Positions 3,539-44,726 of a stretch of DNA of 64,000 nt are shown here, in pieces (within the stretch, counting starts at the first letter, position 1; each line of letters begins with the position of its first letter). This stretch comes from a bacterium (GTDB taxonomy: Bacteria; UBA10199; 2-02-FULL-44-16; DYJF01). The DNA lies in assembly GCA_041739675.1 (NCBI GenBank), contig JBGSNL010000003.1, forward strand, positions 5,846 through 69,845. Direction: 5' to 3'. The notes below the pieces were generated by a model, which did no database searches, was not told the origin of the DNA, and saw only the letters and a list, made by a program, of their open reading frames with translations. The translations under genes and the position numbers were made by a program.

Positions 3539-4486
3539 CTACTGGTACTTCTTCGCTTCTTCGGGCTGGCCCATTTTGGCATATCCAAAGAAAAGTAGCT
3601 TTTTGATCGTGTCTGTCTGGTTCTTCTGCCAGATTGGCAAAAGTTCACGCACCATGTCAGCGGTCATCTTGAATCTATAGTAGAGCTGCGCCGTCAAGAA
3701 TTTCTTTCCCTCTTCGGAGATGGAAAGTGCTTGAACCTTCGCCTTGTCCTCATTCAATTTCTTTTGTGCGGCCTCAGAAAGTACGCTGAAATTAAAGCGC
3801 CGGCTCTGCCCAGACATCTTTCCGTTTTGATTGGATGCGAAATACCAGCTGTAAGCCTTTCCGGGTGCCAGCTTGAGTTCAGATGCTTTGATTGCGATAC
3901 GGTTATTTGCAGGGGCGATTTTCTTATACGTGATCCGCTTCTTCGACGCATCGTCGACCACGATCACGGGATTTGCAAAATTTAACGGAATACGCTGGCT
4001 CCATAAGAATGTGATTTCGGGAGTCGACTCAATTGCCGTTTCGACAGGGTAGATAGCCTCGGGTCCCATTGTGCCTATTCCCGCAAGTGTCGGCTTCGGC
4101 TGGTTCACGCCCGGCTTGGTCATCTTTACCATACCGTGCACCGTGGGTCCTGCGCCGCCGGCTGCAACCTCGTTCATGGCAAGTGAGATGCCGTCGATCA
4201 TTGTTTTCTTGCCGGCAGGTTTTTCAGCCGCGCCTACCGTATATTTCTCGCCGGAGCCGATTTCCTGAATTGAGCCGTCCATGAGCATCACCGATGCGGA
4301 TGCGCCCGATGCAACGCTAACGCTTGTGCCATCCGGCAGCTCGGCGCCTATCTTCGCGGAGACATTTTGCCCGCCAGGCGCCGCTACGGAAACTTTTCCC
4401 TTTGCGTCCACAATGACGCCCGATGCAAAAACCGGTACTGAAAATGCCATTGCGCACATCACGACCGCAAATTTAAATATTTTCAT
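3539..4486 (-). CDS. Secreted FecR-domain protein
   Basis: Signal peptide MKIFKFAVVMCAMAFSVPVFA. FecR-domain-like pattern KGKVSV..G..V.AKIGAELPDGTSVSVASGASASVMLMDGSIQEIGSGEKYTV. Lies immediately 3' of the CHASE2 cyclase gene, which ends 12 nt upstream; this pairing is commonly seen. Confidence 0.6.
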   Translation of the reverse strand: MKIFKFAVVMCAMAFSVPVFASGVIVDAKGKVSVAAPGGQNVSAKIGAELPDGTSVSVASGASASVMLMDGSIQEIGSGEKYTVGAAEKPAGKKTMIDGISLAMNEVAAGGAGPTVHGMVKMTKPGVNQPKPTLAGIGTMGPEAIYPVETAIESTPEITFLWSQRIPLNFANPVIVVDDASKKRITYKKIAPANNRIAIKASELKLAPGKAYSWYFASNQNGKMSGQSRRFNFSVLSEAAQKKLNEDKAKVQALSISEEGKKFLTAQLYYRFKMTADMVRELLPIWQKNQTDTIKKLLFFGYAKMGQPEEAKKYQ

Positions 4487-6751: not shown

Positions 6752-7909
6752 TTAAACATCATAACACCCTATCGCGCGCGAGATGACTATGCGCTGTATC
6801 TCGCTTGTGCCTTCGCCTATTTCTAAAAGTTTCTGGTCGCGGTAGAACCTCTCGATTTTGTATTCCTGCATGAGGCCGTAACCGCCGTGGAGCTGGACCG
6901 CGTGGTTCACGACGCGGTACATGACCTCCGAGCAGTAGAGCTTGGCCATCGCAGCCTCTTTTGAATAGGGTTTTTCATTGTCTTTCAGCCAGCAGGCCTT
7001 GTAGAGAAGGGAGCGCGCCGCTTCGATCTCGACTGCGCAGTCGGCCAGTTTGAACGCGTTGACCTGGAAAGTTGAAATGGGTTTTCCGAACTGCTTGCGT
7101 TCTTTCGCGTATTTCATGCCGAGCTCGAACGCACCCTGCGCGCCGCCCAACCCCATTGCCGCGATTGAGAGCCTTCCGGCGTCCAGTGTGTCCAACATCT
7201 GATGAAAACCCTCGTCGCGGTTGCCCAAAATGTGATCTTCCGGAACCTCAACGTTGTCGAAATAGAGTTCCGCGGTGTTTGAGGAGCGCCACACCATTTT
7301 ATTTTTCATAGCGCGTCTTGTGAATCCCTTGGAGTTGGACTCAACAATGATGCAGGAAAGTTCCTTTCTTCCGTCCGATCTCTTTCCGGTTGCCGCCTGA
7401 ACCGTGACGCCGGCAGTTATTTCCGTGGCGGCGTTCGTTATAAAGATTTTCGCGCCGTTGATTATCCATTTTCCGCCTTTGAGCTCAGCCGTGGTTTTTG
7501 TGGCGGCCGCATCGGAGCCGGCATCGGGTTCGGTTAGCCCGAAGCCCCAGAGTTTTTTGCCGGTGCAAAGTTCAGGCAGATATTTTTTCTTCTGTTTGTC
7601 GTTTCCAAATTTATAAAGAGGACCGATGCCAAGGGAATTTCCCGCGGCCACGGTTGCCGCCTGCGACCCGTCGATACGGGCCAGCTCCTCAACGAGGATG
7701 ATATACGAAAGATAGTCCATCCCCTGACCGCCGTATTTGGGATCGACCGTTATGCCGAAAAATCCCATCTCCCCCATTTTTTTAGTGATGTCGTAGGAGA
7801 ACTCCTCTTTGCGGTCTAACTCCTCCACTTTAGGAGCGATCTCCCCCTCAGCAAAATCGCGAACAGATTTTCTCAAAAGTTCCTGCTCCGGTAATAAATT
7901 GAAATCCAT
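6752..7909 (-). CDS. Acyl-CoA dehydrogenase (short/medium-chain type)
   Basis: Full-length ACAD architecture. N-terminus MDFNLLPEQELLRKSVRDFAEGEIAP and C-terminal YRDQKLLEIGEGTSEIQR motif. Confidence 0.85.
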   Translation of the reverse strand: MDFNLLPEQELLRKSVRDFAEGEIAPKVEELDRKEEFSYDITKKMGEMGFFGITVDPKYGGQGMDYLSYIILVEELARIDGSQAATVAAGNSLGIGPLYKFGNDKQKKKYLPELCTGKKLWGFGLTEPDAGSDAAATKTTAELKGGKWIINGAKIFITNAATEITAGVTVQAATGKRSDGRKELSCIIVESNSKGFTRRAMKNKMVWRSSNTAELYFDNVEVPEDHILGNRDEGFHQMLDTLDAGRLSIAAMGLGGAQGAFELGMKYAKERKQFGKPISTFQVNAFKLADCAVEIEAARSLLYKACWLKDNEKPYSKEAAMAKLYCSEVMYRVVNHAVQLHGGYGLMQEYKIERFYRDQKLLEIGEGTSEIQRIVISRAIGCYDV

Positions 7910-7917
7910 TTGCCCTC

Positions 7918-9354
7918 CTATGACGCTTCGAAAATATTTCCCCGCCCCAATATCCAGTTAGGATCGTACTGTTTTTTCCAGTCTTTCATCTTTTGTATGA
8001 CGCTCGCATTGTATTGTATAGGCATCAGGTTCGTGTGGATTTTTCCGATGCCGTGCTCGCCCGCGACCCCACCACCCAACTCCACCGCTTTTCTGCAACA
8101 ACGGATGAGCACATCTTCCGCAAGTTTCCACTCTTCGGGGGTTTTGGCAAATATATTTGTGTGCGGATGGCCCCTGCCAAGATGGGCATAGGCTATATAA
8201 GGAAGGTCGACGGCCGCAGCTTCCTTATAAAAGAAATTCATCATCTGGATGAGCCTTTCAACCGGCACCCACCAATCGCTCCCCACCTTGCCGCCATTAA
8301 CCTGCCAGTATTTTCGCCCCTCCTCGTTCGCCCACTCCGGTATCCGGTGGCGCCAGAGGCGGAAGTTCTCTTTTTGCCTTGGGGTATCGGCGACTATTAT
8401 CGAATCGGCAAATTTTTGAGGGATGGCGGAGGCTATTTTTTTGTACAATTTATCAAGCGCCGCGTCCTTTCCTTTTTCGTACTCTTCCTTGAAATATAGA
8501 AGGGCCTGTGTCCCTTCAGGAAATTGTGCGACACCCTCGGCAGTTTTCATGGCGCTCAAGGCGCCGCGGTCGATATATTCCAGCGTGCGTATCGAAGGCG
8601 TTCTATTTTTTACCATATCCACCAGGCATTCAAGTGCTGCCGTCTCCGAAGGGAAGGGTATGAGGGCAGAAAAAAATTCGGGAGACTTTGGAAGAAGTCG
8701 GAGTGTCACATCTGCGATAAATCCCAGAGTCCCCTCCGATCCTATGAAGAGATCGATCGGGTTTTTCCAGCCGGTGAAATAGCCGCCGCGGTTATGTGCG
8801 TCGGAAGGGATCTCGCCCGGTTCCCGTTTCAGTATCTTCTCGGATCCGTCCGCAAGAAAAACGCGTATGCTCTCGACATAACGCCTTATGGGGCCGTATT
8901 TGAAAGAATCCTCGCCGGTGGCGTTCGTCGAAATGTTGGCCCCGACGCGGCATTCGTCGCGCGAGGTGGGCGCAACCGGATAGAAAAAGCCGGCCTCGTC
9001 TATTTTTTTCTGCGCGTCGGCGACAATCGTTCCCGGGCGGATCGTCGCAGTGGGTTTGTCGTGCGCGGCGTCCACAGCCACTACGCCTTCAAGCTTTTCA
9101 GTGCTGATGAGAAGGCCCTCCATGGCGACGGAGGAACCTGTCATGGAGGTCTGCGACGCGCAAAAAGTTACCGGTATGCGGTTTTCGTTGCAGAAACGGA
9201 GCGCCTCTTTAACTTCCTTTTCGTCGCGCGCGCGCATCACTGCGTCGGGGTCGCCCGTCATCATCGTATCTTCAAGATAGGTCTCGATGCGCTCGTCCCC
9301 TTTGAAGATGAGATCGGGCGACCCTGGAATTCGGCTGAAGATTTTCTTGTCCAT
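7918..9354 (-). CDS. FAD-linked oxidase (GlcD/D-lactate dehydrogenase family, FAD_binding_4)
   Basis: Length and N-terminal FAD-binding-domain pattern (IPVTFCASQTSMTGSSV...) fit the FAD_binding_4 fold. The C-terminal HGIGKIH-type segment fits the FAD-linked oxidase C-terminal domain. Confidence 0.7.
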   Translation of the reverse strand: MDKKIFSRIPGSPDLIFKGDERIETYLEDTMMTGDPDAVMRARDEKEVKEALRFCNENRIPVTFCASQTSMTGSSVAMEGLLISTEKLEGVVAVDAAHDKPTATIRPGTIVADAQKKIDEAGFFYPVAPTSRDECRVGANISTNATGEDSFKYGPIRRYVESIRVFLADGSEKILKREPGEIPSDAHNRGGYFTGWKNPIDLFIGSEGTLGFIADVTLRLLPKSPEFFSALIPFPSETAALECLVDMVKNRTPSIRTLEYIDRGALSAMKTAEGVAQFPEGTQALLYFKEEYEKGKDAALDKLYKKIASAIPQKFADSIIVADTPRQKENFRLWRHRIPEWANEEGRKYWQVNGGKVGSDWWVPVERLIQMMNFFYKEAAAVDLPYIAYAHLGRGHPHTNIFAKTPEEWKLAEDVLIRCCRKAVELGGGVAGEHGIGKIHTNLMPIQYNASVIQKMKDWKKQYDPNWILGRGNIFEAS

Positions 9355-31731: not shown

Positions 31732-33201
31732 ATGCAGAGACGCAACGTTTTTTATATCTTGCTTGCGGCGTGTCTTCTTTTTCCGGGCGAGGGCTGCTCC
31801 AAGGTTAAGGCCCCGGCCGAAAAGAAGGCGGAACAGACAGTCGTGAAACCCGCAGTTGCGGGGGCGTTTTATCCCGCCGACAAAGAGATATTAAGCACGA
31901 CAATCGAAAAATATTTGAACGAGGCCGCTCCTGCGCCTGTGAGCGAGCACATATTCGGTATCGCGGTCCCGCACGCGGGTTATCAATATTCGGGGCCGGT
32001 CGCGGCATACGCCTACAAATCGATAGAGGGGAAAAAATATTCGACTGTTGTCGTCATGGCCCCGTCACATCGGGTCGGTTTTGAAGGTATCGCCCTCACG
32101 ACAAAGGATTTTTACGAGACGCCGCTGGGCCGGATCCCCATCGCAAAAGAGCTCTCGCAAAAACTCATGAGCGATTTTTCCTGGGCCAAAGACGATCCGC
32201 GCCCATACGGTATTGAGCATTCACTTGAGGTGGAGCTCCCCTTTTTGCAGACGGTGCTCAAAGATTTCAAAGTCCTTCCCATAATAGTCGGCGTTACAAA
32301 TCCCAACATGCTTTCAAAGCTGGCGGCAAAATTGAACGAGATGCTCCCCGGCGGGGATGTCCTTTTTGTCGCGAGCACCGATCTTTCCCACTACCACCCT
32401 TATAATGATGCGGCGGCGAGGGATAAAAAGACCATAAAAATCATCGAGGATATGAACGTTGCGGCGTTCGCTGCGGCGGAACTGAAGGGGGAGGCCGAGC
32501 TTTGCGGCGGCGCACCTGTCGAAACGCTCATGGAGATCGCAAAGCTTAGAAAGGGCAAGGCGAAGCTTGTGAAATACGCCAACTCCGGCGACGTTACGGG
32601 CGACAAGTCGCGCGTCGTGGGCTACGGGGCTTTTGTGTTCACAGGCGGGGCGGCAGCGGAAGAGGGTGCTCTTTCGGAGACGCAGAAAAAAACGCTGCTC
32701 GCGATTGCGAGAAATTCGATCGAGGCCGAGGTGTCAGGAAAGCCGCAGCCAAAGTTTGACATAAAAGATCCCGTTCTTCTCAAAGACGGCGCGGCATTTG
32801 TGACCATCAGGGAACACGGGGATTTGAGGGGCTGCATCGGCCACATCATGGCGGTGGGGCCGCTTTACAAATCGGTGCGCGATAACGCCGCCTCCGCGGC
32901 ATCGCAGGACCCGCGTTTTCCTCCGGTGAGGCCGGATGAACTTAAAAATATCGATCTTGAAATATCGGTTCTCACGCCGCCAGAGCCTCTTTTAAAACCG
33001 ATGGATGTCAGGATCGGAACCGACGGTCTCATCATACAAAAAGGATATAACCGCGGAGTCCTTCTGCCGCAGGTTCCCGGCGAGCAGGGCTGGGGAAAAG
33101 AAGAGTTTCTGGAAGGTATCTGCCGCAAGGCCGGCATGTCCGCCGGCTGCTGGAAAGACGCCAACCTCATGCGCTTCCAGGCTATCGTTTTTCATGAATA
33201 A
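31732..33201 (+). CDS. Memo-like (AmrB) and AMMECR1 (AmrA) fusion protein with an N-terminal signal-like segment
   Basis: Memo motifs AGAFYP, APSHRVGFEG and DLSHYH. C-terminal AMMECR1 motif LRGCIGHI. N-terminus MQRRNVFYILLAACLLFPG is signal-peptide-like. Confidence 0.75.
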   Translation: MQRRNVFYILLAACLLFPGEGCSKVKAPAEKKAEQTVVKPAVAGAFYPADKEILSTTIEKYLNEAAPAPVSEHIFGIAVPHAGYQYSGPVAAYAYKSIEGKKYSTVVVMAPSHRVGFEGIALTTKDFYETPLGRIPIAKELSQKLMSDFSWAKDDPRPYGIEHSLEVELPFLQTVLKDFKVLPIIVGVTNPNMLSKLAAKLNEMLPGGDVLFVASTDLSHYHPYNDAAARDKKTIKIIEDMNVAAFAAAELKGEAELCGGAPVETLMEIAKLRKGKAKLVKYANSGDVTGDKSRVVGYGAFVFTGGAAAEEGALSETQKKTLLAIARNSIEAEVSGKPQPKFDIKDPVLLKDGAAFVTIREHGDLRGCIGHIMAVGPLYKSVRDNAASAASQDPRFPPVRPDELKNIDLEISVLTPPEPLLKPMDVRIGTDGLIIQKGYNRGVLLPQVPGEQGWGKEEFLEGICRKAGMSAGCWKDANLMRFQAIVFHE

Positions 33202-33210
33202 AATGTTTGG

Positions 33211-35031
33211 CTATTGCGCTGTGCCCAGTTTCTGCCGGATGGAAGTGATCATTCCCGATATCTCTGCGTCCTGTTGCATGTCGGCGGGCATCAGTTGAAA
33301 CATGCTTTCAAAGAATTGCTTTGTGAAGTCGGAGGGTCTTCCATTAAGCGTAAATCCGTCGGCGACTACATGTAACGCTTCAGTAGCAGTATTTCTTTTT
33401 CCCAGAATCCAATCTATGCTTGATGTTATGAATAAAAATTCAATTTTAGAGATATCAAAAAATGTTTCGTCGCCAAAAGTCTTTACCAATGGATTTCCCA
33501 TCCATTTTTTAACTATGTAAACCGTCAAATTGTGTTGCACGTCATTGCGGTTTTCAGACTTCAATTGGAGACAGTGAGCGAGATCATTTATTGCCATGCT
33601 CAAATTCCCCTTTTGTAACCAGATAGTGCCACGGACAAAAAAGTAGTTTGAAGATGAGTAGATGTCGATGGCTTGTGTGCAAAAGTCTATTGCATCATCT
33701 AATGAATTCATTTGCCGCGAAATATTGCTAAGGGCGAGAAGTGCGTTAGCATTCATGTCATCCAACAGAATTGCCGTGCGCGCAGCATCTTCGGCTGCTG
33801 CTAAATTGTTATCTTGCACCAATAGGCAAGCTGAATTTGAATAAAATATGCTTAATGCTTGGCGCAATGCTAGAGGGAAATTTTTGCGATATTGCGCATC
33901 GCTTTGATAAAATATTGGATCAAAGAGACGTCGTTGATTATCAAGTTGCAGGCTGATGCAGAAATGATTGAAATCCGGATTGGATTTTGTCGCTCTCTCA
34001 AGTAGGGTGTTAGATCGTGTTCTGAGGCTTTCAGGGCCATCTAACAACGCGACGTCTTCCACTCCAAGACTTACCTGAAGAAATATGGGGTTGAGCCCAG
34101 CAGTTTCAAATACCGAAAAAAGGATCTTGGAGACCTCTGAACAATCTCCCTCGGTCCTATTAATGGCTTCTAGTGCCGTGTATTCCACCTCATTATATTT
34201 CGGACGCAGGCCGCCTCGACGCACGAGAAAATTTGCGAATTCTCCGAATTCAAATTTATTCAGTTCTTCGTTGGCGTAAAGCAAAAAATCCGGATTCAGT
34301 GTGGACAAGCCGGCAGGAGGAGTCGTTGTAAGCCAAAAAAGACCAAAGGCAAGCCGCTTTTTATATTCCTCCGTTCCTTCTACAAAGCCCTTTCTTGTTA
34401 TGATATCCTTTAGCAGGTTGATTGCGTCTGTCACTTTCGTTTGAATATCTTCATCAAAAGTTGTTTCCGGATTCAAGTCGTCGAGCACCCACGGGAGGGG
34501 ATGGCCAAGTGTGGCCTCTATGAGATTTCGAAAACGCTCATAGTTGTTCATGGCATATTCAAAGACCTCTTGAGAATCTATTTTCAGGTCATTGGCCCCT
34601 TTGATGCAGGATTTTTCTTCCTGTGACGCACAATATTTGCCGTCGAAATTTATGACATTGTAACCTTTATCAATATCACTTTGCGCAACCCCTTCTCTCA
34701 AAAGACCCTGATATAATTTGTATGCCTGCGGATTGTCCGACTCCTCAAAATTTAACGTTATCCTCGGAGCGGACGGCTCGCTTCCTTTATTTGTACAACC
34801 CGCTCCGAAAAGCATGAAGGGCCAGCCGAAAACTATTGCGGGGAGCATTGCTGGTTTTTCAGCATAGAAATCATAAACAGTTTTTACTCCATCAACGATT
34901 GCGCCCGGCGCAGCATCAACGGTTTCTTTTGCCGTCTCCGCTATGGTTTCAAGATCCGTGCAGTAATCGCCTATGCACGCCTCGTAATTGAATGGATTTA
35001 GGTCGCTCCAGCTGATGCCGCCAGAATACAT
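33211..35031 (-). CDS. Family member A: conserved N-terminal module (MYSGGISWSDLNPFNYEACIGDYCTDLETIAE), an internal hydrophobic segment and TPR-like repeats
   Basis: RBS GGAGGAAAC then ATG. 32-residue N-terminal near-identity with the 42247-44529 protein. No Sec signal. TPR-like C-terminal half. Visibly more A/T-rich than its neighbours. Confidence 0.6.
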   Translation of the reverse strand: MYSGGISWSDLNPFNYEACIGDYCTDLETIAETAKETVDAAPGAIVDGVKTVYDFYAEKPAMLPAIVFGWPFMLFGAGCTNKGSEPSAPRITLNFEESDNPQAYKLYQGLLREGVAQSDIDKGYNVINFDGKYCASQEEKSCIKGANDLKIDSQEVFEYAMNNYERFRNLIEATLGHPLPWVLDDLNPETTFDEDIQTKVTDAINLLKDIITRKGFVEGTEEYKKRLAFGLFWLTTTPPAGLSTLNPDFLLYANEELNKFEFGEFANFLVRRGGLRPKYNEVEYTALEAINRTEGDCSEVSKILFSVFETAGLNPIFLQVSLGVEDVALLDGPESLRTRSNTLLERATKSNPDFNHFCISLQLDNQRRLFDPIFYQSDAQYRKNFPLALRQALSIFYSNSACLLVQDNNLAAAEDAARTAILLDDMNANALLALSNISRQMNSLDDAIDFCTQAIDIYSSSNYFFVRGTIWLQKGNLSMAINDLAHCLQLKSENRNDVQHNLTVYIVKKWMGNPLVKTFGDETFFDISKIEFLFITSSIDWILGKRNTATEALHVVADGFTLNGRPSDFTKQFFESMFQLMPADMQQDAEISGMITSIRQKLGTAQ

Positions 35032-35104
35032 GTTTCCTCCTGTCAATCCTGTCAGGGATAGGTCATATCTAATTGATCGGGCGATGTATAGAGGAAATTG
35101 GGCC

Positions 35105-35141
35105 AAAAAAAAGGCCACTTGGTTGCCCAAGCGGCCCTTTT
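35105..35141 (-). terminator. Bidirectional Rho-independent terminator between the BNR lipoprotein gene and gene A
   Basis: 10 bp stem GGCCACTTGG / CCAAGCGGCC with loop TTGC. A-run on one side and T-run on the other. Confidence 0.65.
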
Positions 35142-35155
35142 TGGTTTCATTTCAA

Positions 35156-37753
35156 TTAGTGCGTTATTATCATCGGACTCAATGGCCTTGTCATGACTCT
35201 GAATGAGCTCGAAGGTTCAGTCGGCGTTTCCTCCGATGTCGGCGGAGCGGCCCCAACATCCACGCCACCCATGGTAGAACCGTCTCCGACTGCAGAGACT
35301 TTGTAGGTCACCTTAGCACCGGAAACAGTTGCTGCGATGGCGACGCTTCTCACTTCGCCCAGGTCAACCGCTTCGGGTGAATTGAGTACCGACCAGAACT
35401 CTCCGCCGTTGCGTGTGACCGCCATGCCAGTCGCTGTTCCTGCGAGAACGACCGGTCCGGTCTCATCCTGATTGTAAGCGGGATCGATTGCCAGTGATAG
35501 AACTGGGCCGGCAAGAGTCCCGGTTGTTTTCGTCCAGTTTGCGCTATCTTTATTGCTCACGTATACGCCGTCATCGGTTCCTGCGAAGAGCATGTCCGAC
35601 TTGGCGTCATAGGCGATGCTGTACACCGGTTGCGTACCGTCAAGCGCTCCACCTACAAACTGTGCCCAGCCTATTCCATTGCCGCTTTCGTTGACGTAGA
35701 CTCCACTGTTGGTTGCGGCGAAGATTTTTGTTCCGACTTCTTCCAAGTCATGCGCAACCTTTGAACCGTCTCTCGAATAGACGCCGTTCGTATCTTGATT
35801 TCTTGCCCCGATCCACGGTGTTCGCACTCTGTCCGCCGCGTGCTTGGCGGCATCCTCGGTAACGAGTATTCCGCGGTCATAGGCAACGATCAGGCGGCCG
35901 TCTTCTTTTGCTATCATGTCGCAAATCTGCCCCATCGAAACGATGTCGGCTGAGCTTGGTGCGTTGGAGATGCCGGTCTGTGTCTTGCCCGCGCACGTCT
36001 TATGGCTGCCCGAATATCCATCTCTCCTTGCGTAGAAGAAGATGTCGAACGGTTTCCAATCGCTGTCTTTTTCTCCTCCATTAGTTGTATACATGATGAG
36101 ACCGGTTGTGCCTACGTAAACAACGTTCGGATCGCCCTTTTTCACCGCGATGGCGTTCACGGGATAGGTTTTCACATAATTTGAGAAGAAATTGTTGTTC
36201 TGCCAGAGACCTCCGAGTTCAAAGGCATTCTTTATCGGATCCTCTATGCCGATGCCGTCCGCAAGTTCCTTGCTATCGGCAAAATTGCTCAGGCGATATA
36301 CTGAAATTTCACCGAATGCTTCGCGTTTCACGCCGTAATAGAAACGGCTTGCATCATTGGGATCGGCTATGACGCGTGTCACGGGCAATGCGTCACCAAC
36401 ACCGCCATGGAAGAACTGATGGCTCATCATCGGGATGATGCTCTGGATAGGATGTTGTGTCTCGGGAGTAGAAATTCCGATACGATTAATGACAATCGGG
36501 ATTCCCGACAAATCCGGGACCCTTGCTTTCACCTTTGTTCCTGCGACGAGATCTGCCTTATTAACGGCCTTACCGCCAACCGTGAGAGAGTCGATTCCGC
36601 TCACCGTTGCGGCGTCAGCCTGCACTTCAATCTCAACTTCTTCGGAGACGAAAGCCCACGGGCCGGCCTTGATGTCGAGGGCTGTCGTGTTGCCGCTCTG
36701 AAGGGCTACGACGACTGCGGCGCGGGCGCTATTCTCGCCCACCTGAGCGATCATGTCGAAGCGTGTATCAGAGGTCAGCGTGCAGAGGCTGTCCTGCATT
36801 CCGCCGGTCAAAACCTGTGCGGTCGGGAGCGCGGGCTCGCACGTCACGGGCTTGTCTGCTGTTACAGTCACCTGTGCACTTGCGGGGATCGCTTCATAAT
36901 GGACCGTTACTTGATCGGTGAAATTTGGAACCGTCACCAACGCTTCTTGTCCGTTGGCAGTGATCGTCGCTCTGATGTTGGATGCGTTGACCTGAATCGT
37001 GACGTCGTCGGTCTTTTCCTGACCGTCGGCGCATATGGCCTCAACAGTGTATTTCGTCGTCGCGGAAGGCGTCACCGTAGCTTCGCCTGACGTCGGGAAC
37101 GTATCGGCAACCGGCGTTCCGTCAGCTGCCACAACAGTTACCTGCGTCACGTCCGGACTTGCCGTCCATGTGATCGTCGTCGGGTCGCCGGCATTTACAG
37201 GAGTATCGCCTGCGCCGGATACGATGTCTACCGAACATTCGGATGCCGCAACTACAGCTACTGTAATAGTAGCCTGCGAGGTCACCGGTCCTGTCGGTAC
37301 AGGGTTCTCGGAAGGTGTTGGAACCGGCGGTTCTCCCGGAAGCGGTATCTGACCGGACTTGGACAGTTTGGATATGACGACTATCGCAGCCGCGCTTTCA
37401 TCGGCCGCCGCAAAAGTCTTGGATGCGGTGAGGATAAAGTCCGTCGTGTTCGTTATGCCATCCACCTGTGTGGAGCCCGAAAGCTCTTCAAAGGGGCCGG
37501 CATGGAACTGGAACACACCCTCCGGTGCTGATGCGACCTCTATCGAGTCCGCGTCCTCCACTTCCCAGTAGATCGTCGTGGATCCGCCAAGCGGAACCTG
37601 AGGCGGATCGGCCCTGAAGACCTTGATCACCGGTGGAGGCGGCGTGATATTCGCGCTCTGGCCGAGCTGAAGCTCGCCGTCGGAGCACGCGGCTGCGAAG
37701 GCCGCAATCGCGACCACCGCTATCATCCGCCATATTTTCGTTGTGTTCATCAT
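35156..37753 (-). CDS. Large lipoprotein with Ig-like domains and BNR/Asp-box (Ycf48/sortilin-like) beta-propeller repeats
   Basis: MMNTTKIWRMIAVVAIAAFAAAC is a lipoprotein signal. Repeated S-x-D-x-G-x-x-W-type Asp-box motifs (TNGGEKDSDW, SNKDSANWTK, TRNGGEFWSV). Thr/Val-rich Ig-like repeats. Confidence 0.6.
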   Translation of the reverse strand: MMNTTKIWRMIAVVAIAAFAAACSDGELQLGQSANITPPPPVIKVFRADPPQVPLGGSTTIYWEVEDADSIEVASAPEGVFQFHAGPFEELSGSTQVDGITNTTDFILTASKTFAAADESAAAIVVISKLSKSGQIPLPGEPPVPTPSENPVPTGPVTSQATITVAVVAASECSVDIVSGAGDTPVNAGDPTTITWTASPDVTQVTVVAADGTPVADTFPTSGEATVTPSATTKYTVEAICADGQEKTDDVTIQVNASNIRATITANGQEALVTVPNFTDQVTVHYEAIPASAQVTVTADKPVTCEPALPTAQVLTGGMQDSLCTLTSDTRFDMIAQVGENSARAAVVVALQSGNTTALDIKAGPWAFVSEEVEIEVQADAATVSGIDSLTVGGKAVNKADLVAGTKVKARVPDLSGIPIVINRIGISTPETQHPIQSIIPMMSHQFFHGGVGDALPVTRVIADPNDASRFYYGVKREAFGEISVYRLSNFADSKELADGIGIEDPIKNAFELGGLWQNNNFFSNYVKTYPVNAIAVKKGDPNVVYVGTTGLIMYTTNGGEKDSDWKPFDIFFYARRDGYSGSHKTCAGKTQTGISNAPSSADIVSMGQICDMIAKEDGRLIVAYDRGILVTEDAAKHAADRVRTPWIGARNQDTNGVYSRDGSKVAHDLEEVGTKIFAATNSGVYVNESGNGIGWAQFVGGALDGTQPVYSIAYDAKSDMLFAGTDDGVYVSNKDSANWTKTTGTLAGPVLSLAIDPAYNQDETGPVVLAGTATGMAVTRNGGEFWSVLNSPEAVDLGEVRSVAIAATVSGAKVTYKVSAVGDGSTMGGVDVGAAPPTSEETPTEPSSSFRVMTRPLSPMIITH

Positions 37754-37782
37754 ATCCTAAGCCCCTTTCTTCCTTAGATTGC

Positions 37783-39708
37783 TTATTGACCTATCCCAGG
37801 AAACGTTACTCCAAGTGTTGTAGAAACCGCCCAGTCGAAACCGTATTCTTCACCGGTCATGCTTGCCCCATCTCTCCCCATGAGATCGAGAGCTAACTCG
37901 CCAGTCAGCTTGCTGCCGTCGTCTCCGAATGGCGTTTCAAAACCAAGCTGTAAGCGTCCGACTGGCGAATCGTATCCTCTGTCATCACAGAAGGTATTCC
38001 CAGTGTCGGATTCAGTGAAACACGCATCGCCGTGGTTTCCGTAGTACAACATTGATACACCGGGAATCAGTTTGAATCTATCGGAGATACTGATCGGGAA
38101 ATTGGCGTATGCTTCCATATCGATGCGATACGCTTCGTAAGGCTGAACCGCTCTCCATGCATACGCTGTCAGAAGGTTCAATCCTATGACGACGTTTTCA
38201 TGGACTGTTCCTTCGATTTCAAGTTTTACTCTGACGACACCGGTTGCATCTGCGAGACCATAGCCGCCTACGGAACCCCCGATCGTAAGATCACCGTCTA
38301 AAAGATCTGCGCTTGCACCGACAACTGCGCCGCCGCCGTTTTCGCCGGTAACTGCGTCGGTCGTGGTTGTCACTTCACCGGTCGCCGGATCGGTCGTAGG
38401 GATGAGTCCGATGGATACACTCTGACCGCCGACGGCTTCGGCTGTAAGGGTCACATTATCTGTCACGGGGTATCGCATGCTGACATCCGCTCCGGCGAAT
38501 GATCTGCCGAAGAGCGATACCAGACCGCCGTTAACTCCGACGAATCCGCGCTTCTTGAATACTTCGTTTTCCGTTAAGAAGTAGTTCGCGCCTAAGGCAA
38601 GGTCCGTGATGTTGGCGGAATCGGATATTCCGTTGACAAGCTGGAGCAGTGCAATATCTTCGCTAGTAACCCTGTAATCCTGAGATCCCGCGGCCTCGAT
38701 TTTCATGCGAAGCAAGTTGATTGCCCAGTCTTTGATTACATAGGCGACGCCGCCGTCGAAGGAGAGCTCGCCTGACCATCCCAGAGAGCCGAAACCGCCC
38801 GATCCGCTTGCTACAAGACGCCAGAGCCAGCTTTCATCGTCATCAAAATTGACGACGCCCGGCATTCCACCCCCTGTGGGCCCTGCCACTACCGGATAGC
38901 GCGCAAGTTCAACGGTAATAATGCTGATTTCGTCTGCGCTGATAACTGTGTCGCCGTCAGTGTCCGAACCGGCTACGGTCACGTTGCTGATATAAGTTGT
39001 AAACAGGCGATTTAAAAGACCTTGCGCATCAAGATTTTCATCCCGCTGAATCTGGTCAATCTGTCCCACTAAGGCATCACCTATGGCCTCTTGGACATCG
39101 GGGTTGTCCTGCAAATTATCAGGCACCTGCGACATTGCGCTTTCATGCAGGCCGATAATTACGTCTCCTGTGGGCCTTCTGTACTGGCGATTTTGAAATG
39201 CTTCGGTGAGAGGATCGACCAGTGCATCTATCCCATTCAGAGTCGATCGCTGGACATTGTAATCCAAGAGATCCTGATTAGCCAAATCTCTCAGTGTCGT
39301 ACCCTCTAATGCCAACTCGCGCGCTTTACCGAACCAAGCTGGATATGTGAATCCTTCAAAGAACGGGATTATCTTGAGCGACTCTGATTGTGCCTGACGA
39401 AGCAAAGCTATATCCAAGCCGTCGACGGCTTGAGCTGTGCACTGATCGGCAGCTGTATATGCCGGATTGGAGTCTTCGCCCGGGTTCAACTGAAATGCGT
39501 ACCGGAGGCATGCCGATGTCGCCGATTCTGTTCCGACCATAACATATGTGTCATAGATACGAAGTTGTGCCGGAGTTAGGTCTTGCACGTTAGTGTCGTA
39601 CAGTCCTTCCACTGTAGTCCGGCACTCGGCGTTTTCCAGACCGCACATAGCAGTCGTTATTTGCCCACGATATTGGCTCTGACTGGTTACTTGTCCACCT
39701 GGCAACAT
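37783..39708 (-). CDS. Family member D: MLPGG N-terminus, beta-rich Gly/Asp-rich protein, no Sec signal
   Basis: RBS AAGGAGGAAAC then ATG, identical to gene A. Begins M-L-P-G-G. 29 nt upstream of the BNR lipoprotein gene. Confidence 0.5.
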   Translation of the reverse strand: MLPGGQVTSQSQYRGQITTAMCGLENAECRTTVEGLYDTNVQDLTPAQLRIYDTYVMVGTESATSACLRYAFQLNPGEDSNPAYTAADQCTAQAVDGLDIALLRQAQSESLKIIPFFEGFTYPAWFGKARELALEGTTLRDLANQDLLDYNVQRSTLNGIDALVDPLTEAFQNRQYRRPTGDVIIGLHESAMSQVPDNLQDNPDVQEAIGDALVGQIDQIQRDENLDAQGLLNRLFTTYISNVTVAGSDTDGDTVISADEISIITVELARYPVVAGPTGGGMPGVVNFDDDESWLWRLVASGSGGFGSLGWSGELSFDGGVAYVIKDWAINLLRMKIEAAGSQDYRVTSEDIALLQLVNGISDSANITDLALGANYFLTENEVFKKRGFVGVNGGLVSLFGRSFAGADVSMRYPVTDNVTLTAEAVGGQSVSIGLIPTTDPATGEVTTTTDAVTGENGGGAVVGASADLLDGDLTIGGSVGGYGLADATGVVRVKLEIEGTVHENVVIGLNLLTAYAWRAVQPYEAYRIDMEAYANFPISISDRFKLIPGVSMLYYGNHGDACFTESDTGNTFCDDRGYDSPVGRLQLGFETPFGDDGSKLTGELALDLMGRDGASMTGEEYGFDWAVSTTLGVTFPGIGQ

Positions 39709-39769
39709 GTTTCCTCCTTAATTTCCCCCGATTCACCTTCAATTCATCTCAATTTGAAAAAACTCCTTC

Positions 39770-39882
39770 ATAATTATCTAGGTATGCATGCGATTCCGTC
39801 ATCCGGTGCTCCATAAGCCATGTCAGCGGGTCCGCCGATTTCAGTCGGGCGTACTCTGATCTCTCTGCACGCCGCTTGTGTC
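39770..39882. repeat. DNA-level repeat, copy 1 (3' end of gene C plus its 3' UTR). Near-identical to 42242-42350.
   Basis: Shares the exact runs GTCAGCGGGTCCGCCGATTTCAGT and GGGCGTACTCTGATCTCTCTGCACGCC and overall high identity with the second copy. Confidence 0.7.
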
Positions 39883-41204
39883 GGTTGCGTCGGTTCAGTC
39901 GGCTGAGTCTGCTGATTCGGCACGCAATGTCCGTGGTCTCTGTGTTCTCCAGGAGGACACGTGCGCGGCGTGGTCGGCCTTACAGGCGGTGTCACAGGCG
40001 GTGTCGGTTCGGTTGCGACCGGCTCTGCGGGAACAAATCCATAGATGCTGTTCATGATCCACTGCACGAGTTCCCTGCGCTCCGGATCGGAAATGAATCC
40101 AAGATATACGTTCATCACAGCATCAGAAGGTCTCTGTTCGGGAAGAGCGCAACTGCTAAAAAGTTTCGCAAGGGCATCGCGTGCTCTTGCAATGTAGGTA
40201 TTGGCGTACTCGGCCTGTCCCGTCGCCTGCGAACTGTTGGCCGCTCTCACATACCATGCGGCCATGACGATGTCGGCCATCTGGTTGTCCTGAAATTTCA
40301 CTGTCGAAGACAGGGCGGTCAGGGCCGCTTTTACCTGAGTTTCATTGAGGCCTTCAACCGGCGCAACTGCGGCCAGGAAGTAATCGATCGGGAAGGTTGC
40401 GGATGTTATCGTGCCGCAAGTCGTCGCACCGAATTTTTTGAATGCTTCCTGAACGGCCGCGATATAGGCGTCCACATTTGTGTTTGCCTCGGCCGCAAAT
40501 GACCATCTGGCCTGCGCGATGTTGCTGTACTCGCCAACGTAATCGAGGACGTCCGGATGCCACGTTGTGACGCCGGAGAGTGTGAGAATGTCGAAGATCT
40601 GTTTCTGTTCGCCGGCGTATCTGGATTCAATGTTGACATTCACGGGAACGCGTTCCGGCGTAAAGTACGTTCCGTCCGCCCACGTATACCACTTGTCGAC
40701 GTGGCACACGTTGTCCATGGTGAAAGGTCCCGTCCATGATTGCGTCATCGTCCAGTCTATTGCGTTGTCCGCCGTGAGACCTTTTTCACGTCCCCACAAA
40801 GAAAGAAGGGATCTGAACGAGGCATTGGTCATTCTTGCGTTGATCTGAATGTCGTTTTGTATGACCTTGCAGTAGCTGTCTTCCGGATTGAAATAAGTTC
40901 TTGGAGCTACGGGAGCTGCAGGAGCCGGTTGAGGCGCCGGAGCTGCTGTTTCCGGTTTTGCTGCGTCTTGTGCGACAAGTGCTACCGTTTCATCATCTTC
41001 ACCGCAGGCCGATGCTACAGCAACGAAACCTGTCACTGGCAAAACAATTTCAGGCGCCAAAATTGCAGCCGCTACCCATGCGGCGGCTCCCAGAGCCGCC
41101 AAGAGGTCTTCAGGATCTTCATGTGAAGCATTGGCATGCAATTGGCCGGTTGCAAAATCGTGTTCCCATTTTACGAGTCCGCCATCAAATCCACCTGAAA
41201 ACAT
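39774..41204 (-). CDS. Family member C: MFSGG N-terminus, internal hydrophobic segment ending VASAC, C-terminal Cys-bracketed motif
   Basis: RBS AAGGAGGAAAT then ATG. C-terminal ACREIRVRPTEIGGPADMAYGAPDDGIACIPR is shared with the 42247-44529 protein. A Pro-rich linker precedes it. Confidence 0.55.
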   Translation of the reverse strand: MFSGGFDGGLVKWEHDFATGQLHANASHEDPEDLLAALGAAAWVAAAILAPEIVLPVTGFVAVASACGEDDETVALVAQDAAKPETAAPAPQPAPAAPVAPRTYFNPEDSYCKVIQNDIQINARMTNASFRSLLSLWGREKGLTADNAIDWTMTQSWTGPFTMDNVCHVDKWYTWADGTYFTPERVPVNVNIESRYAGEQKQIFDILTLSGVTTWHPDVLDYVGEYSNIAQARWSFAAEANTNVDAYIAAVQEAFKKFGATTCGTITSATFPIDYFLAAVAPVEGLNETQVKAALTALSSTVKFQDNQMADIVMAAWYVRAANSSQATGQAEYANTYIARARDALAKLFSSCALPEQRPSDAVMNVYLGFISDPERRELVQWIMNSIYGFVPAEPVATEPTPPVTPPVRPTTPRTCPPGEHRDHGHCVPNQQTQPTEPTQPTQAACREIRVRPTEIGGPADMAYGAPDDGIACIPR

Positions 41205-41397
41205 ATTTCCTCCTTACAAACTAAATAAGCCCGAGGACGCGCTGAATTTCATCGTTACGCTACCCAGTTGCATTATCGGATGACCCCCAAAAATGTTGCG
41301 TCCTTTTTTCTACCATCCCCCTCAATTCGCCCACTTCTTGGTGGGAACCCGCCGAAGTTTCAGTGGCGGGGCCCTCATCCTTATTTTCGTGCGAAAT

Positions 41398-41440
41398 AGA
41401 AAAAAGTTGCGCGGTATTTTTAAGCAATACCGCGCAACTT
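41398..41440 (-). terminator. Rho-independent terminator after gene E (14 bp perfect stem)
   Basis: AAGTTGCGCGGTAT-loop-ATACCGCGCAACTT followed on the minus strand by a U-run. Confidence 0.7.
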
Positions 41441-41466
41441 GTAATACGCTGATATTATTAAGTATT

Positions 41467-42213
41467 TTAGTGCTGTCCTTGTGCCCCTTGGCCTGCTGTC
41501 CACGGCACTTGGAATCCGCGTCCGGTGCCCGCATCGGCTGCAGGAGGAGGAGAAGGAGGAGGTGGCGGCGGCGTGGTCGTCGGACCGCCTTCACTCGAAC
41601 ACCTTTCAGCAGCCCTTTGCCTTGCACACTCGATATCCCCTTGGCATTGTGTAATTTCCGTGGCTGTTGGCTGGCAATTACTAGTAGATGGCGGCTGCTC
41701 GTTCATTTCGCGATGTGAACATCTGTCTTGAATACAAGCCGCGTAATCTTGAACATCCGGTCTTGAACATAATACTGTGTCTGAAGGTGTCGGCACACAT
41801 TCATAATGTGCCTGGCATTCTGTTCCCGCCAGGCCGGCTCGTATGTCGTCAACGGAACAAGGCGGCAACTGTGTGGCAACGTTTTGGCCGCTTAGTCTGT
41901 TTGCAAGCTCGAGCAAGAAGGAGGCAAAAGTATATGTACCGCCCCACAAGTTGATGCCTCCGTTTGATGAGCACATTTCGTTTGATTCAGCGGTGGGGCA
42001 AGTTTTGAATATCGTGTTTGCGATCACATAAGCAAAGCCTTCAAAAATAGCTTTAAGATTTTCCGGCACACGCTGCAGGTTGAGCGTGTAGGTATTGGTC
42101 GTATCCTGTACGCACTGAGTTATCTTGTCTTCAGTCTGCTCATTAGCGCATGCGAGCGAGGTGATTCTATCAAGCGTACTTCCGACATTTTGCGTCTGTC
42201 CTGCTGAAATCAT
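41467..42213 (-). CDS. Family member E: MISAGQ N-terminus, Cys-rich and Pro-rich small protein
   Basis: RBS AAAGGAGG then ATG. M-I-S-A-G fits the family start. Many Cys residues. C-terminal poly-Pro stretch (PPPPPPSPPP). Confidence 0.45.
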   Translation of the reverse strand: MISAGQTQNVGSTLDRITSLACANEQTEDKITQCVQDTTNTYTLNLQRVPENLKAIFEGFAYVIANTIFKTCPTAESNEMCSSNGGINLWGGTYTFASFLLELANRLSGQNVATQLPPCSVDDIRAGLAGTECQAHYECVPTPSDTVLCSRPDVQDYAACIQDRCSHREMNEQPPSTSNCQPTATEITQCQGDIECARQRAAERCSSEGGPTTTPPPPPPSPPPAADAGTGRGFQVPWTAGQGAQGQH

Positions 42214-42241
42214 AAGGCCTCCTTTTGAAGCGTTGTTCAAT

Positions 42242-42350
42242 ATAAATTATCTGGGTACACAAGCAATGCCGTCATTTGGCTCTCCATAAGCTCTGTCAGC
42301 GGGTCCGCCGATTTCAGTTGGGCGTACTCTGATCTCTCTGCACGCCGGAG
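42242..42350. repeat. DNA-level repeat, copy 2 (3' end of gene B plus its 3' UTR). Near-identical to 39770-39882.
   Basis: Same exact runs as copy 1. Conservation extends past the stop codon into the AATTAT-rich 3' flank. Confidence 0.7.
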
Positions 42351-44529
42351 GCGGAGGAGGTGGTGGTGCTACGACTATCTTGCAATTATCGTCACAATTC
42401 GGAGTGCCGTCGCATTCCTCGCCGCGTTCCACTCTGCCGTTGCCGCATTCGATGGTAGGCGGTGGAACCGCATTCCTTGTGCAATCGTTTCTGCAGCCGT
42501 CGTTGTTATTTGTATTTCCGTCGTCGCACTGCTCGCGTCCTTCCACAACATGATCGCCGCACCTGATCGTGTGCACAGGCTCACCTTGAGGTGTCACGCA
42601 CGAACCGGCTAAACCCGTCGTCGTCGCCTGTCCGTCGGGGCACGGTTCGCAGCTGCAATCTTCCGGATTGAGCACTTGCGGCGGTGTGTTCTGGCTGAAG
42701 CACCACTCTGCGGCAGTCATCTGCATGTTGCACTGCTGCGTAGCCTCAACGAACATCCTGGCAGGGCTCTGCTCATGGCAGCACTCTCCCGGCGTGACAA
42801 CATGCGGCTGCCTTATGCGGTCTCGCAACGTTTCTTCTCCATGTATCGGCTGTCCACCCAGCGGCCAGAAGTCGAAGGCGATTCCGTCATTCATCTTCTG
42901 GATGTATTCAAGCAGAAGGCGTGACCAGTAGTGGTCATCGGCGCAGGTGGGGCAACGATCATACGAGCGTTGTACCGCACCGTTGATCTCCTTTAGTATC
43001 TCCGTCCTGATCGTCTCTTTGGTTTCACCCGCGCGGCGCCAGATATAATCGTTGGCGTATTGGCGGATGGACATCCTCATGTCGAGCCCCGTCGCTGGAT
43101 CGGCAAAGCCTCCCATGACGAGAATGATGTTGTCCTGCTCGTCCAACTCGACCCACCACTCGCCCGTGTCTATCTTGCCCGTGCTGTCCGCGTTTGACAG
43201 TTCGTCCCAGCGCATGTGGTAAATGGCGGCTGTCTGGAAATACAAAGATGCGGCATGGCCCGCCAAAGGTGTAGCCCAATCAATACGGTTGGACTGCGCG
43301 CGGCCCGGAGTTCCCCAATCGATGTCCCGCCAGGTGAAATCGAAGTCGAACTTATGCATATCGGGGTATTTGACCCCGGCGGCTGCGGTCATATTCATTA
43401 GCACAAGCTCGTATCTTTGGACCGCGTCGGGGTTGTTGTTAGAAAGGTCGGTCATAAGCACGGAGACTTCGTTCATCCTATTCCTGATATCATCTTGTAT
43501 TTGACCTATTAAAACATCATCCGCTTCAATGATAGTCTGGTCTTTCCCATCACTTACATCTTTCTCTCTTTTGGCGACGGCTTCTTCAAGTTTCTTGAAG
43601 AGGTCTTGGAGGTTGAAAGGCAAGCGCCGGAGGTTATCTTCCAGCGCATATTCCAGCGGCGTCCTGGGCAGAGTATAATCTGGTTCGAAGAATTTCTTGA
43701 AATCCTCAAGGAAGGCGGCGCGAACGTCGGGATAACGCGATGACACCAGCAGATTTGCAGTGTGGTTGAGATACTCCGTGGCCTCTACGAGATTCGGGGG
43801 CCAGAAAAACCAGCCGGGTATTGCGCTGGTGAGCCTTGTCGCCTCCATCAGTTTTATGATGGACCATACTCTCGAATCATCGTCATTGAGACCGTTTGAA
43901 AAACTCCAGAAAGAGGCGGGCGTGTCCGACCACGTCCAGAAGCCGTCGGTTTCAAGGATGTTGCGTCCGCATATGACGTCTTTGTGATCGGGGTTGTAGA
44001 TGCGCCACGCATTAAAGGAACAAGTATCTTGCGCCCCGAAAAAGCCCGTAAAGTTGCCGGGGTGGTCGGAGCAGATAATTCCACCGTGCACCATCGAGCC
44101 CCAGAATTCGAAAGACTCCTGGCTTCCGCGCGAGCGACATGCGCCGAGGTCCTCGTCGTAATAATCAGTGAGCGATTTGTCGGCAAGCTCATCATAGTTG
44201 ACATAGTCCTCTCTCAGATATTTCCTTTCAGCGAGAGGCGTTGTCTCTTTTCTGGGGTCGGGCGTGGGGATTTCGTTGCCGCCACAGCCCGCGCCTAAAA
44301 TACTGAGCGCCACTTTTCCGATCGCACGCTCCGGCGCTGTAAAATTATCGACGAAATTCCCAAGTGGATCGTCGCTCGTGACGTACGCCTCTTCCAACGC
44401 TTCACGAAAGAAATTGTTGGCTGCGGAGTACTGTTCGGCAACTGTGTCCAAACTGGTACAGTAGTCACCTATGCACGCTTCATAATTGAACGGATTAAAG
44501 TCGCTTAATGAAATGCCCCCTGAAAACAT
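42247..44529 (-). CDS. Family member B: conserved N-terminal module, Myxococcus-type cysteine-rich repeats and the C-terminal Cys-bracketed motif
   Basis: RBS AGGAGGCAAC then ATG. MFSGGISLSDFNPFNYEACIGDYCTSLDTVAE matches gene A. C-terminal region has CGDHVVEGREQCDDGN...DGC and CGNGRVERGEECDG repeats. The last 31 aa match gene C. Confidence 0.6.
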   Translation of the reverse strand: MFSGGISLSDFNPFNYEACIGDYCTSLDTVAEQYSAANNFFREALEEAYVTSDDPLGNFVDNFTAPERAIGKVALSILGAGCGGNEIPTPDPRKETTPLAERKYLREDYVNYDELADKSLTDYYDEDLGACRSRGSQESFEFWGSMVHGGIICSDHPGNFTGFFGAQDTCSFNAWRIYNPDHKDVICGRNILETDGFWTWSDTPASFWSFSNGLNDDDSRVWSIIKLMEATRLTSAIPGWFFWPPNLVEATEYLNHTANLLVSSRYPDVRAAFLEDFKKFFEPDYTLPRTPLEYALEDNLRRLPFNLQDLFKKLEEAVAKREKDVSDGKDQTIIEADDVLIGQIQDDIRNRMNEVSVLMTDLSNNNPDAVQRYELVLMNMTAAAGVKYPDMHKFDFDFTWRDIDWGTPGRAQSNRIDWATPLAGHAASLYFQTAAIYHMRWDELSNADSTGKIDTGEWWVELDEQDNIILVMGGFADPATGLDMRMSIRQYANDYIWRRAGETKETIRTEILKEINGAVQRSYDRCPTCADDHYWSRLLLEYIQKMNDGIAFDFWPLGGQPIHGEETLRDRIRQPHVVTPGECCHEQSPARMFVEATQQCNMQMTAAEWCFSQNTPPQVLNPEDCSCEPCPDGQATTTGLAGSCVTPQGEPVHTIRCGDHVVEGREQCDDGNTNNNDGCRNDCTRNAVPPPTIECGNGRVERGEECDGTPNCDDNCKIVVAPPPPPPPACREIRVRPTEIGGPADRAYGEPNDGIACVPR

Positions 44530-44726
44530 GTTGCCTCCTAATCAAGGTCGTTGTTTTAATTGACCTCAACCCCTTATCGCGGTTTTTCAAAAATAGTTGC
44601 TTGGTTTTTTAAGGTACCCTGAGAGGCCCGTTTATCAATAAGAATAGGGGTATGGCAAGCCGGAAAAGAGCTTTATTGCTTATTGGCGGAAAGTCTGCTA
44701 GGGAGCCCCCAACAATCGGAGGTAAA

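Follow-up and report, generated by a model that had tools for sequence, protein, structure and literature searches.

Why should neighbouring genes that encode otherwise dissimilar proteins all begin with the same few residues? The question is raised by six genes, here called B, E, C, D, L and A, that lie head to tail on the minus strand of a 64-kb stretch of bacterial DNA (contig JBGSNL010000003.1; hereafter the window). Five of the six starts (at 44529, 42213, 41204, 39708 and 35031) consist of a perfect Shine–Dalgarno (SD) sequence AGGAGG, a 4-nt spacer and ATG, and encode the tips MFSGG (B), MISAG (E), MFSGG (C), MLPGG (D) and MYSGG (A). The cluster holds five of the eight AGGAGG-N3–6-ATG sites in the window, and among window gene starts the tip M-[FYLI]-[SP]-[GA]-G occurs at these five only. 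The original prediction had recognized this shared ribosome-binding site and start, which we find in all five cases, but had described the genes as paralogues; all-against-all BLASTP aligns only an N-terminal block of A with B and a C-terminal block of B with C. The best explanation is instead that the five genes belong to one conserved, lineage-restricted envelope-protein cluster of a Bdellovibrio-like bacterium, and the shared N-termini of A, B and C are best read as long extensions of predicted lipoprotein signal peptides.

Conserved leaders in a syntenic gene cluster

The N-terminal block shared by A and B spans residues 1–32, of which 26 are identical. Twenty-one codons differ between the two genes and 15 of these differences are purely synonymous, including one exchange between the AGC and TCA codons for serine, so that the Nei–Gojobori proportions of synonymous (pS) and non-synonymous (pN) difference are 0.94 and 0.13. 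These values uphold the predicted near-identity and protein-level selection, and point to an old block held as protein. Because synonymous change is saturated, recent gene conversion is disfavoured and shared constraint favoured, with an old transfer between genes as a possible source of shared blocks. The accompanying claim that A and B diverge completely after residue 32 is roughly true, although a hidden Markov model (HMM) of B-family leaders still retrieves the A leader. The synonymous difference of 0.94 (about 18 of 19 sites) exceeds the 0.75 expected at saturation; this excess may be chance, or could result from selection to keep the two blocks, which lie 9.5 kb apart, dissimilar as DNA, since a recombination event between them would remove the cluster.

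An exhaustive phmmer search with B against 1.84 billion protein representatives yielded four true relatives besides B itself (P0002, P0003, P0005 and P0007), and all other matches fall in the Cys-rich repeats. Each of the four is encoded divergently beside the same pair of aminotransferase and MMPL genes, at loci L002, L007, L008 and L012, and the nearest relatives of the class III aminotransferase that flanks the window cluster (81% and 74% identity) come from metagenome-assembled genomes labelled Bdellovibrio sp. and Pseudobdellovibrionaceae. The B relatives start with MLSGG, MRSGG, MFSGG and MKAGG, the last at an SD-preceded ATG of an over-long gene call. All four cluster genes of L002 open with such a tip behind strong ribosome sites (MLSGG, MIAGG, MIAGG and MFSGG), as do three of the four in L008 (MFSGG, MKSGG and MFGGG), the remaining gene being an orthologue of L (50% identity) with a classical signal. 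Across the four relative loci, M-x-[SAG]-G-G begins nine of ten readable cluster genes, and M-x-[SAGP]-[GA]-G is common to 14 genes in five loci. The cluster is further matched by a C orthologue in L002 (35% identity over 301 amino acids), a D homologue in L008 (28% identity) and a D gene in L002 that starts MFSGG.

Wider searches returned little else. Word-index protein searches with the B leader, full-length B and full-length D found nothing or the query alone, a scan of viral contigs with the B alignment gave no match, and back-translated patterns of the A/B block matched none of 185,579 species genomes. All known family members come from metagenome assemblies, and by these searches the module appears to be very rare and restricted to a single lineage, rather than a sorting signal in wide use. 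In metagenomes the back-translated patterns found one doubtful open reading frame (ORF) (L001, positions 185–532 of contig Ga0209666_1155189), small and GC-rich, which starts M(H)MKRPLEFNLEACIGDYC, followed by a stretch rich in Pro and Ala. Its own N-terminus matches the A/B core FNYEACIGDYC and has no MxSGG tip; the match could be chance, the 8-mer being the search pattern itself, or a distant relative.

To describe the leaders we compared ten from five loci: A, B and C of the window; B, X and C of L002; B and C of L008; and the B proteins of L007 and L012. The hydrophobic stretch that the original prediction had noticed inside A, B and C indeed ends in GAGC (Cys79), GAGC (Cys82) and ASAC (Cys67), respectively. 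Over the set, the first Cys after the hydrophobic core lies at residue 67–90, which makes the leader 66–81 residues long in the window proteins and 66–89 in their relatives. The residue at −1 is G, A or S in 10/10 leaders; K or R stands just N-terminal of the core in eight, including window A and B; the uncharged core measures 9–20 residues (9–19 in window A, B and C), and is split in C-type leaders into two hydrophobic halves by A-P-E; and a Pro/Gln/Ser-rich linker follows the Cys. The region before the core has a net charge of −4 to −11, 6–14 aromatic residues and a loose second motif, Y-[DE]-x-Y; an extension of about 45–70 residues precedes the signal. The five B-family members share M1, G4, G5, N62, P66 and C82 without exception, C82 being the lipobox Cys. 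The PROSITE PS51257 core pattern, {DERK}(6)-[LIVMFWSTAG](2)-[LIVMFYSTAGCQ]-[AGS]-C, matches seven of the ten leaders, including those of window A and C, and both classical L proteins.

The stretch in A, B and C therefore looks like a lipoprotein signal with its lipobox, and the module is best seen as a long extension of such a signal. This revises the proposal that none of the five proteins has a Sec or Tat (twin-arginine) signal, which stands for D and E, and for Tat, and does not stand for A, B and C (A and C match PS51257; B misses it by one residue). It likewise narrows the idea of a new targeting, docking or assembly module: the N-terminal region is real, is selected as protein and is absent from Pfam, NCBIfam and PHROGs, and is better regarded as an extension of a lipoprotein signal than as a signal of its own; the analyses showed no function in targeting, docking or assembly. 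Double-glycine, prepilin and Tat leaders had been discounted at the outset, and correctly so: no leader of the ten contains the RR of a Tat signal (S/T-R-R-x-F-L-K), and a prepilin (class III) signal, in which a short basic leader ends in Gly and some 20 hydrophobic residues with Glu at +5 come next, is not seen, because G5 is followed by polar or acidic residues and by no hydrophobic stretch. No Pfam, NCBIfam or PHROGs model falls on any N-terminal region, including Pfam at E ≤ 0.1 for the full proteins and, for the A and B leaders taken alone, at E ≤ 10.

We built an HMM from the five B-family leaders and searched all 1152 ORFs of at least 60 amino acids in the window and the relative loci. 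Beyond its training set it retrieved C of L008 (E = 3.7e-11), A of the window (E = 2.7e-5) and C of L002 (E = 0.005), with the next match at 0.28, and the mature parts of the retrieved proteins are unrelated to B. The leader thus behaves, at the level of sequence, as a portable module joined to unrelated mature domains, and the recurrence that the original prediction had suggested looking for is found at four other metagenomic loci, where the cluster is syntenic. N-terminal blocks fall into lineage-specific types (Table 1), with the same type recurring on different proteins within a genome. The B/C leader pair of L008 has a pS of 0.82 and a pN of 0.19, a signature like that of A and B in the window.

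Shared C-terminal tails and surrounding features

A second kind of shared block lies at the other end of the proteins. The last 39 residues of B and C align in the all-against-all comparison with 77% identity, and this tail (ACREIRVRPTEIGGPAD..ACxPR) is younger than the A/B block and is also constrained (Table 1). In L008, B and C share another Cys-loop tail (approximately 4975–5034 and 6805–6868; pS 0.87, pN 0.17), and B and C of L002 share the tail VVRNPFAD (458–480 and 3565–3590). The tail of E (ADAGTGRGFQVPWTAGQG, window 41467–41541, minus strand) is nearly identical to the C-terminus of the B-type lipoprotein P0007 from another metagenome (L012, approximately 8750–8827), and a related tail, GRGVTNPW, ends P0003. 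Short tails after Pro-rich linkers are thus common to unrelated proteins within a genome, differ between genomes and are under purifying selection. A shared partner could bind them as ligands, for example A's tetratricopeptide repeat (TPR) domain or the L propeller. We considered a diversity-generating retroelement repeat as the origin of the B/C tail and rejected it, as the differences show no adenine specificity and a reverse transcriptase is absent. A PF05635 gene (23S rRNA intervening-sequence protein, an Avd-like four-helix bundle) lies between the aminotransferase gene and B in L002 (5730–6281, minus strand) and in L012 (6204–6557) and is absent from the window; neither a reverse transcriptase nor adenine-specific repeat differences were seen.

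Table 1. Positions and properties of the cluster genes, leaders and shared blocks in the window
Feature	Position	Strand	Details
Gene B	42247–44529	minus	760 amino acids; leader, helical domain, myxo-type Cys-rich repeats, poly-Pro, Cys-loop tail at C-terminus
SD of gene B	44534–44539	minus	AGGAGG
Gene E	41467–42213	minus	248 amino acids; MISAG tip, 14 Cys, poly-Pro, tail GRGFQVPWTAGQG
Gene C	39774–41204	minus	476 amino acids; MFSGG tip, leader, Cys67 in ASAC, Pro/Ala tether, unassigned domain, B-type C-terminal tail
Gene D	37783–39708	minus	641 amino acids; MLPGG tip, polar N-terminus with conserved Cys pairs, beta-rich C-terminal half
Gene L	35156–37753	minus	865 amino acids; classical lipoprotein MMNTTKIWRMIAVVAIAAFAAAC, weak SD, no MxSGG tip
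Gene A	33211–35031	minus	606 amino acids; MYSGG tip, leader, unassigned domain, TPR repeats
B leader, residues 1–82	44284–44529	minus	MFSGG tip, A-like block, acidic/aromatic region, R/K, core VALSILGAG, predicted lipobox Cys82; net charge −9
C leader, residues 1–67	41004–41204	minus	net charge −7; PROSITE lipobox core match VTGFVAVASAC
A leader, residues 1–79	34795–35031	minus	MYSGG tip, B-like block, VYDFYAEK motif, 19-residue uncharged core, Cys79 in GAGC
B 32-codon N-terminal block common to A	44434–44529	minus	81% amino-acid and 71% nucleotide identity
A 32-codon N-terminal block common to B	34936–35031	minus	
B C-terminal tail common to C	42247–42345	minus	ACREIRVRPTEIGGPADRAYGEPNDGIACVPR plus stop; 32 residues, about 86% nucleotide identity, pS 0.36, pN 0.06
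C C-terminal tail, counterpart of B tail	39774–39872	minus	
Terminator-like hairpin	41404–41440	minus	15-bp GC-rich stem and T run directly after E; strongest such site in the region
N-terminal block type, window and L002			[YW]E.C..[DG]YCT
N-terminal block type, L007 and L012			GG[ED]F.IF..YEW
N-terminal block type, L008			GGFEI.GYD..LS

Given the hairpin after E, the cluster would split into B–E and C–D–L–A transcription units. Gene L provides an internal reference for what an ordinary leader looks like in this cluster. The domains recognized with Pfam and NCBIfam are the TPR in A and one myxo-type Cys-rich repeat (TIGR02232/PF13948) in B, and PDB sequence and profile searches gave TPR matches alone, for A. 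A transglutaminase-like Cys-His-Asp core read by eye in A ahead of the TPR (EGDC297SEV...H356...LFD372P, residues ~290–375) was dropped as unconfirmed, with no Pfam match at E ≤ 10. AlphaFold models of B (5-sequence alignment) and D (single sequence) reached a mean predicted local distance difference test score of 43 and 35, respectively, too poor for interpretation. The remainder of the window encodes housekeeping functions: haem synthesis, gidA/gidB, ribonucleotide reductase, MscS, a Memo–AMMECR1 fusion and an MMPL transporter. The Memo–AMMECR1 fusion gene (31732–33201, plus strand) adjoins the cluster and its product starts MQRRNVFYILLAACLLFPGEGCSK, which resembles a signal peptide with a possible lipobox, unexpectedly for proteins usually taken as cytoplasmic.

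Export, translation and competing explanations

From the anatomy, conservation, protein-level selection and synteny described above we infer a topology, a cleavage and a role for the leaders. Each leader can be read in one order: the tip M-x-[SA]-G-G, a block that is acidic and rich in aromatic residues, Y-[DE]-x-Y, one or two K/R, an uncharged core, a lipobox and a Pro/Gln-rich tether. The embedded signal would engage Sec with the N-terminus inside the cell (N-in/C-out), Lgt would lipidate the Cys, and signal peptidase II (LspA) would cut before it. The acidic extension, of 55–70 residues, would stay cytoplasmic and act prior to cleavage as a hold-back or docking element, and this could let the highly translated products of the cluster be handled together. 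The hold-back or docking role is proposed by analogy with type V secretion's extended signal peptide region (ESPR). Taken as a whole, we judge the case evenly balanced that A, B and C are pre-prolipoproteins with an extended leader whose extension acts before cleavage in such an ESPR-like role.

Several observations weigh against this model. The N-region is strongly acidic, contrary to the n-region of an ordinary signal peptide. In three B-family leaders (window B, L002-B and L012-B) a charged residue lies one position too close for PS51257, and their cores hold only 9 uncharged residues. Window C and L002-X have leaders without significant similarity to the rest (HMM E = 1.8 and 3.7), with which they share only the tip and the overall layout. 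D and E carry the tip and have no hydrophobic segment, so the tip cannot simply be part of a lipoprotein signal, and the model leaves the export of D and E unexplained. Among the Pfam-scanned genes of the window we found no partner protein, peptidase or transporter encoded nearby; the original prediction had suggested looking for a co-occurring protease or transporter in the full genome. Finally, the AlphaFold models are unusable and the model draws its support from sequence, and a codon bias at the tip, discussed next, suggests that part of the apparent peptide motif may be a feature of the RNA.

Two alternatives concern how the shared starts are read by the ribosome. If the starts were mis-called, the true proteins would begin internally just before the core and the shared N-terminus would be untranslated; Met62 in A and Met71-Arg-Lys in the L002 B orthologue do sit just before the core. 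However, in the ten leaders no internal start codon ahead of the core is preceded by an SD-like sequence, three leaders lack any candidate start, the upstream ATGs have perfect SDs, and the region upstream of the core is conserved across five loci and kept as protein while its synonymous positions are saturated. Upstream of B, C and D there is no start in frame, E could gain only nine extra codons, from a TTG lying 5′ of its SD, and the gene calls in public assemblies, made independently, use the same starts. On this evidence the long N-terminus is translated, and the misannotated start that had been raised as a possible refutation was not seen; we reject internal starts as contradicted by SDs, conservation and selection, and give them next to no weight. 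A more substantial challenge arises from codon 3, which ends in A in 12 of 14 starts across the five loci, although the codons TCA, GCA, CCA and GGA account for only 9–25% of their synonymous sets. This A makes positions +9 to +14 read AGGNGG, a second SD-like hexamer inside the coding region. The starts could then be a translation-initiation cassette of perfect SD, 4-nt spacer, ATG and AGGNGG, selected for very high or matched translation, with M-x-S-G-G largely its reading, since Gly codons are GGN and GGNGG is indistinguishable from Gly-Gly. The concentration of strong SD–ATG sites in the cluster fits such a cassette, as does gene L, which has neither a strong SD nor the tip; four of the five start regions are no more structured than shuffled sequence (z = 0.2 to 2.8), and no RNA hairpin is common to the five. 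Against it, the cassette leaves unexplained the following 60–80 residues, for which selection at the protein level is clear, the third residue is small in every case and is reached through three different first bases (T, G and C), and to our knowledge no downstream SD-like site is known to enhance initiation. We consider the cassette unlikely as an account of the shared starts.

The remaining alternatives accept the N-terminus as protein and differ in where it goes. The core might be an uncleaved signal-anchor, or the topology might be reversed with the acidic N-terminal domain translocated (N-out). The membrane potential can assist the translocation of acidic N-tails, as in M13 procoat and Pf3 coat, the extension is acidic, and the A-P-E that parts the hydrophobic halves of C-type leaders would also suit such a reading. 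The G/A/S at −1 and the invariant Cys, however, are needs of LspA and Lgt and not of an anchor, K/R stands on the N-side of the core in most leaders, 9-residue cores are too short to span a bilayer, and Cys-rich repeats and Pro-rich tethers on the C-side fit a C-out arrangement; an anchor or reversed topology is distinctly improbable. A Sec-independent tag is the other candidate, in which the M-x-[SAGP]-[GA]-G tip would be read by some pathway that handles all cluster proteins, D and E included. The tip is the sole feature common to all five window genes and nine of ten genes in the relatives, and D, E and the D homologues of L002 and L008 have it with no hydrophobic segment, signal peptide or lipobox. 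D and E look extracytoplasmic because of conserved Cys pairs and because the E tail is that of a B-type lipoprotein: the Cys residues of D are conserved with its L008 homologue, which ends ...YLQFKLTW, resembling an outer-membrane beta-signal, and E combines its 14 Cys with the tail of P0007. The C-terminal half of D is beta-rich, and in a crude test for outer-membrane barrels based on dyad hydrophobicity, residues 300–641 of window D score z = 5 but L008-D scores z = 0, which, with the unusable D model, leaves the extracytoplasmic site of D and E a matter of prediction. Moreover, no transporter, peptidase or chaperone gene lies in or adjoining the cluster, A, B and C already hold a predicted signal sufficient for Sec and LspA, and five residues carry very little information for a sorting signal. 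We therefore regard a Sec-independent tag as unlikely, and its further implications, that D is an outer-membrane beta-barrel and that lineage-specific N-terminal blocks and C-terminal tails are ligands co-evolving with shared receptors, as doubtful. If D and E do lie outside the cytoplasm, they would suggest a possible unrecognized export route in predatory bacteria.

Comparison with known signal systems

Returning to A, B and C as candidate lipoproteins with extended leaders, the nearest mechanistic relative is the classical lipoprotein signal (Lgt/LspA/Lnt, PS51257), with which the leaders have in common K/R, a core free of charge, G/A/S at −1 and an invariant Cys followed by a disordered tether rich in Pro. 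In classical signals, however, the Cys lies at about 15–35 and follows few basic residues, whereas here it lies at 67–90 after a conserved extension of about 45–70 residues with a net charge of −4 to −11. The leaders thus depart from the classical rule of a Cys within about 35–40 residues after a short basic n-region, and three B-type cores are one residue shorter than PS51257 allows. Double-glycine (C39) leaders resemble D and E in having Gly-Gly in an N-terminal segment without a hydrophobic core, but the glycines here are at positions 4–5, whereas in true leaders they end a 15–30-residue peptide with hydrophobic residues at −4, −7 and −12. Among the Pfam-scanned window genes there is no C39 peptidase or ATP-binding cassette (ABC) exporter; the only ABC system is a FecCD-type importer about 40 kb away.

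Lengthened N-regions that carry a motif are known from Gram-positive bacteria, in which KxYKxGKxW and YSIRK motifs, as in the roughly 90-residue signal of GspB, mark surface proteins for accessory Sec or septal secretion. The leaders described here are alike in that some surface proteins are set apart by a conserved motif within an extended N-region, and differ in that those N-regions are basic and Gram-positive and bear another motif; no NCBIfam model of this kind matched the N-termini here, with no search aimed at these motifs specifically.

The ESPR (PF13018) is alike in design only, as a conserved N-terminal extension, restricted to a family and placed before a canonical signal to give a whole of more than 50 residues. 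ESPR-containing signal peptides exceed 50 residues and combine a canonical C-terminal part with a conserved N-terminal extension of 25 residues, which cannot target by itself, slows export and affects later assembly (PMC8151025). The leaders have no sequence similarity to it and no PF13018 match at the Pfam thresholds given above. The ESPR comprises about 25 residues on signal-peptidase-I substrates of Proteobacteria; the extensions here comprise about 45–70 acidic residues on predicted lipoproteins of a Bdellovibrio-like lineage. Searches of the literature turned up no account of leaders of this kind. If the reading is correct, they would be, as far as we found, the first lipoprotein counterpart of the extended signal peptides of autotransporters and Gram-positive adhesins, with an N-domain unusual in being long, acidic and moved between unrelated proteins of one cluster. 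They would also offer a simple system for the role of cytoplasmic signal-peptide extensions in timing, spatial targeting or co-assembly, with a practical reach limited by five representatives among 1.84 billion proteins, drawn from metagenome assemblies only. Our best reading of these N-termini is therefore a rare, lineage-restricted extended signal peptide on putative lipoproteins, closest in logic to the ESPR.

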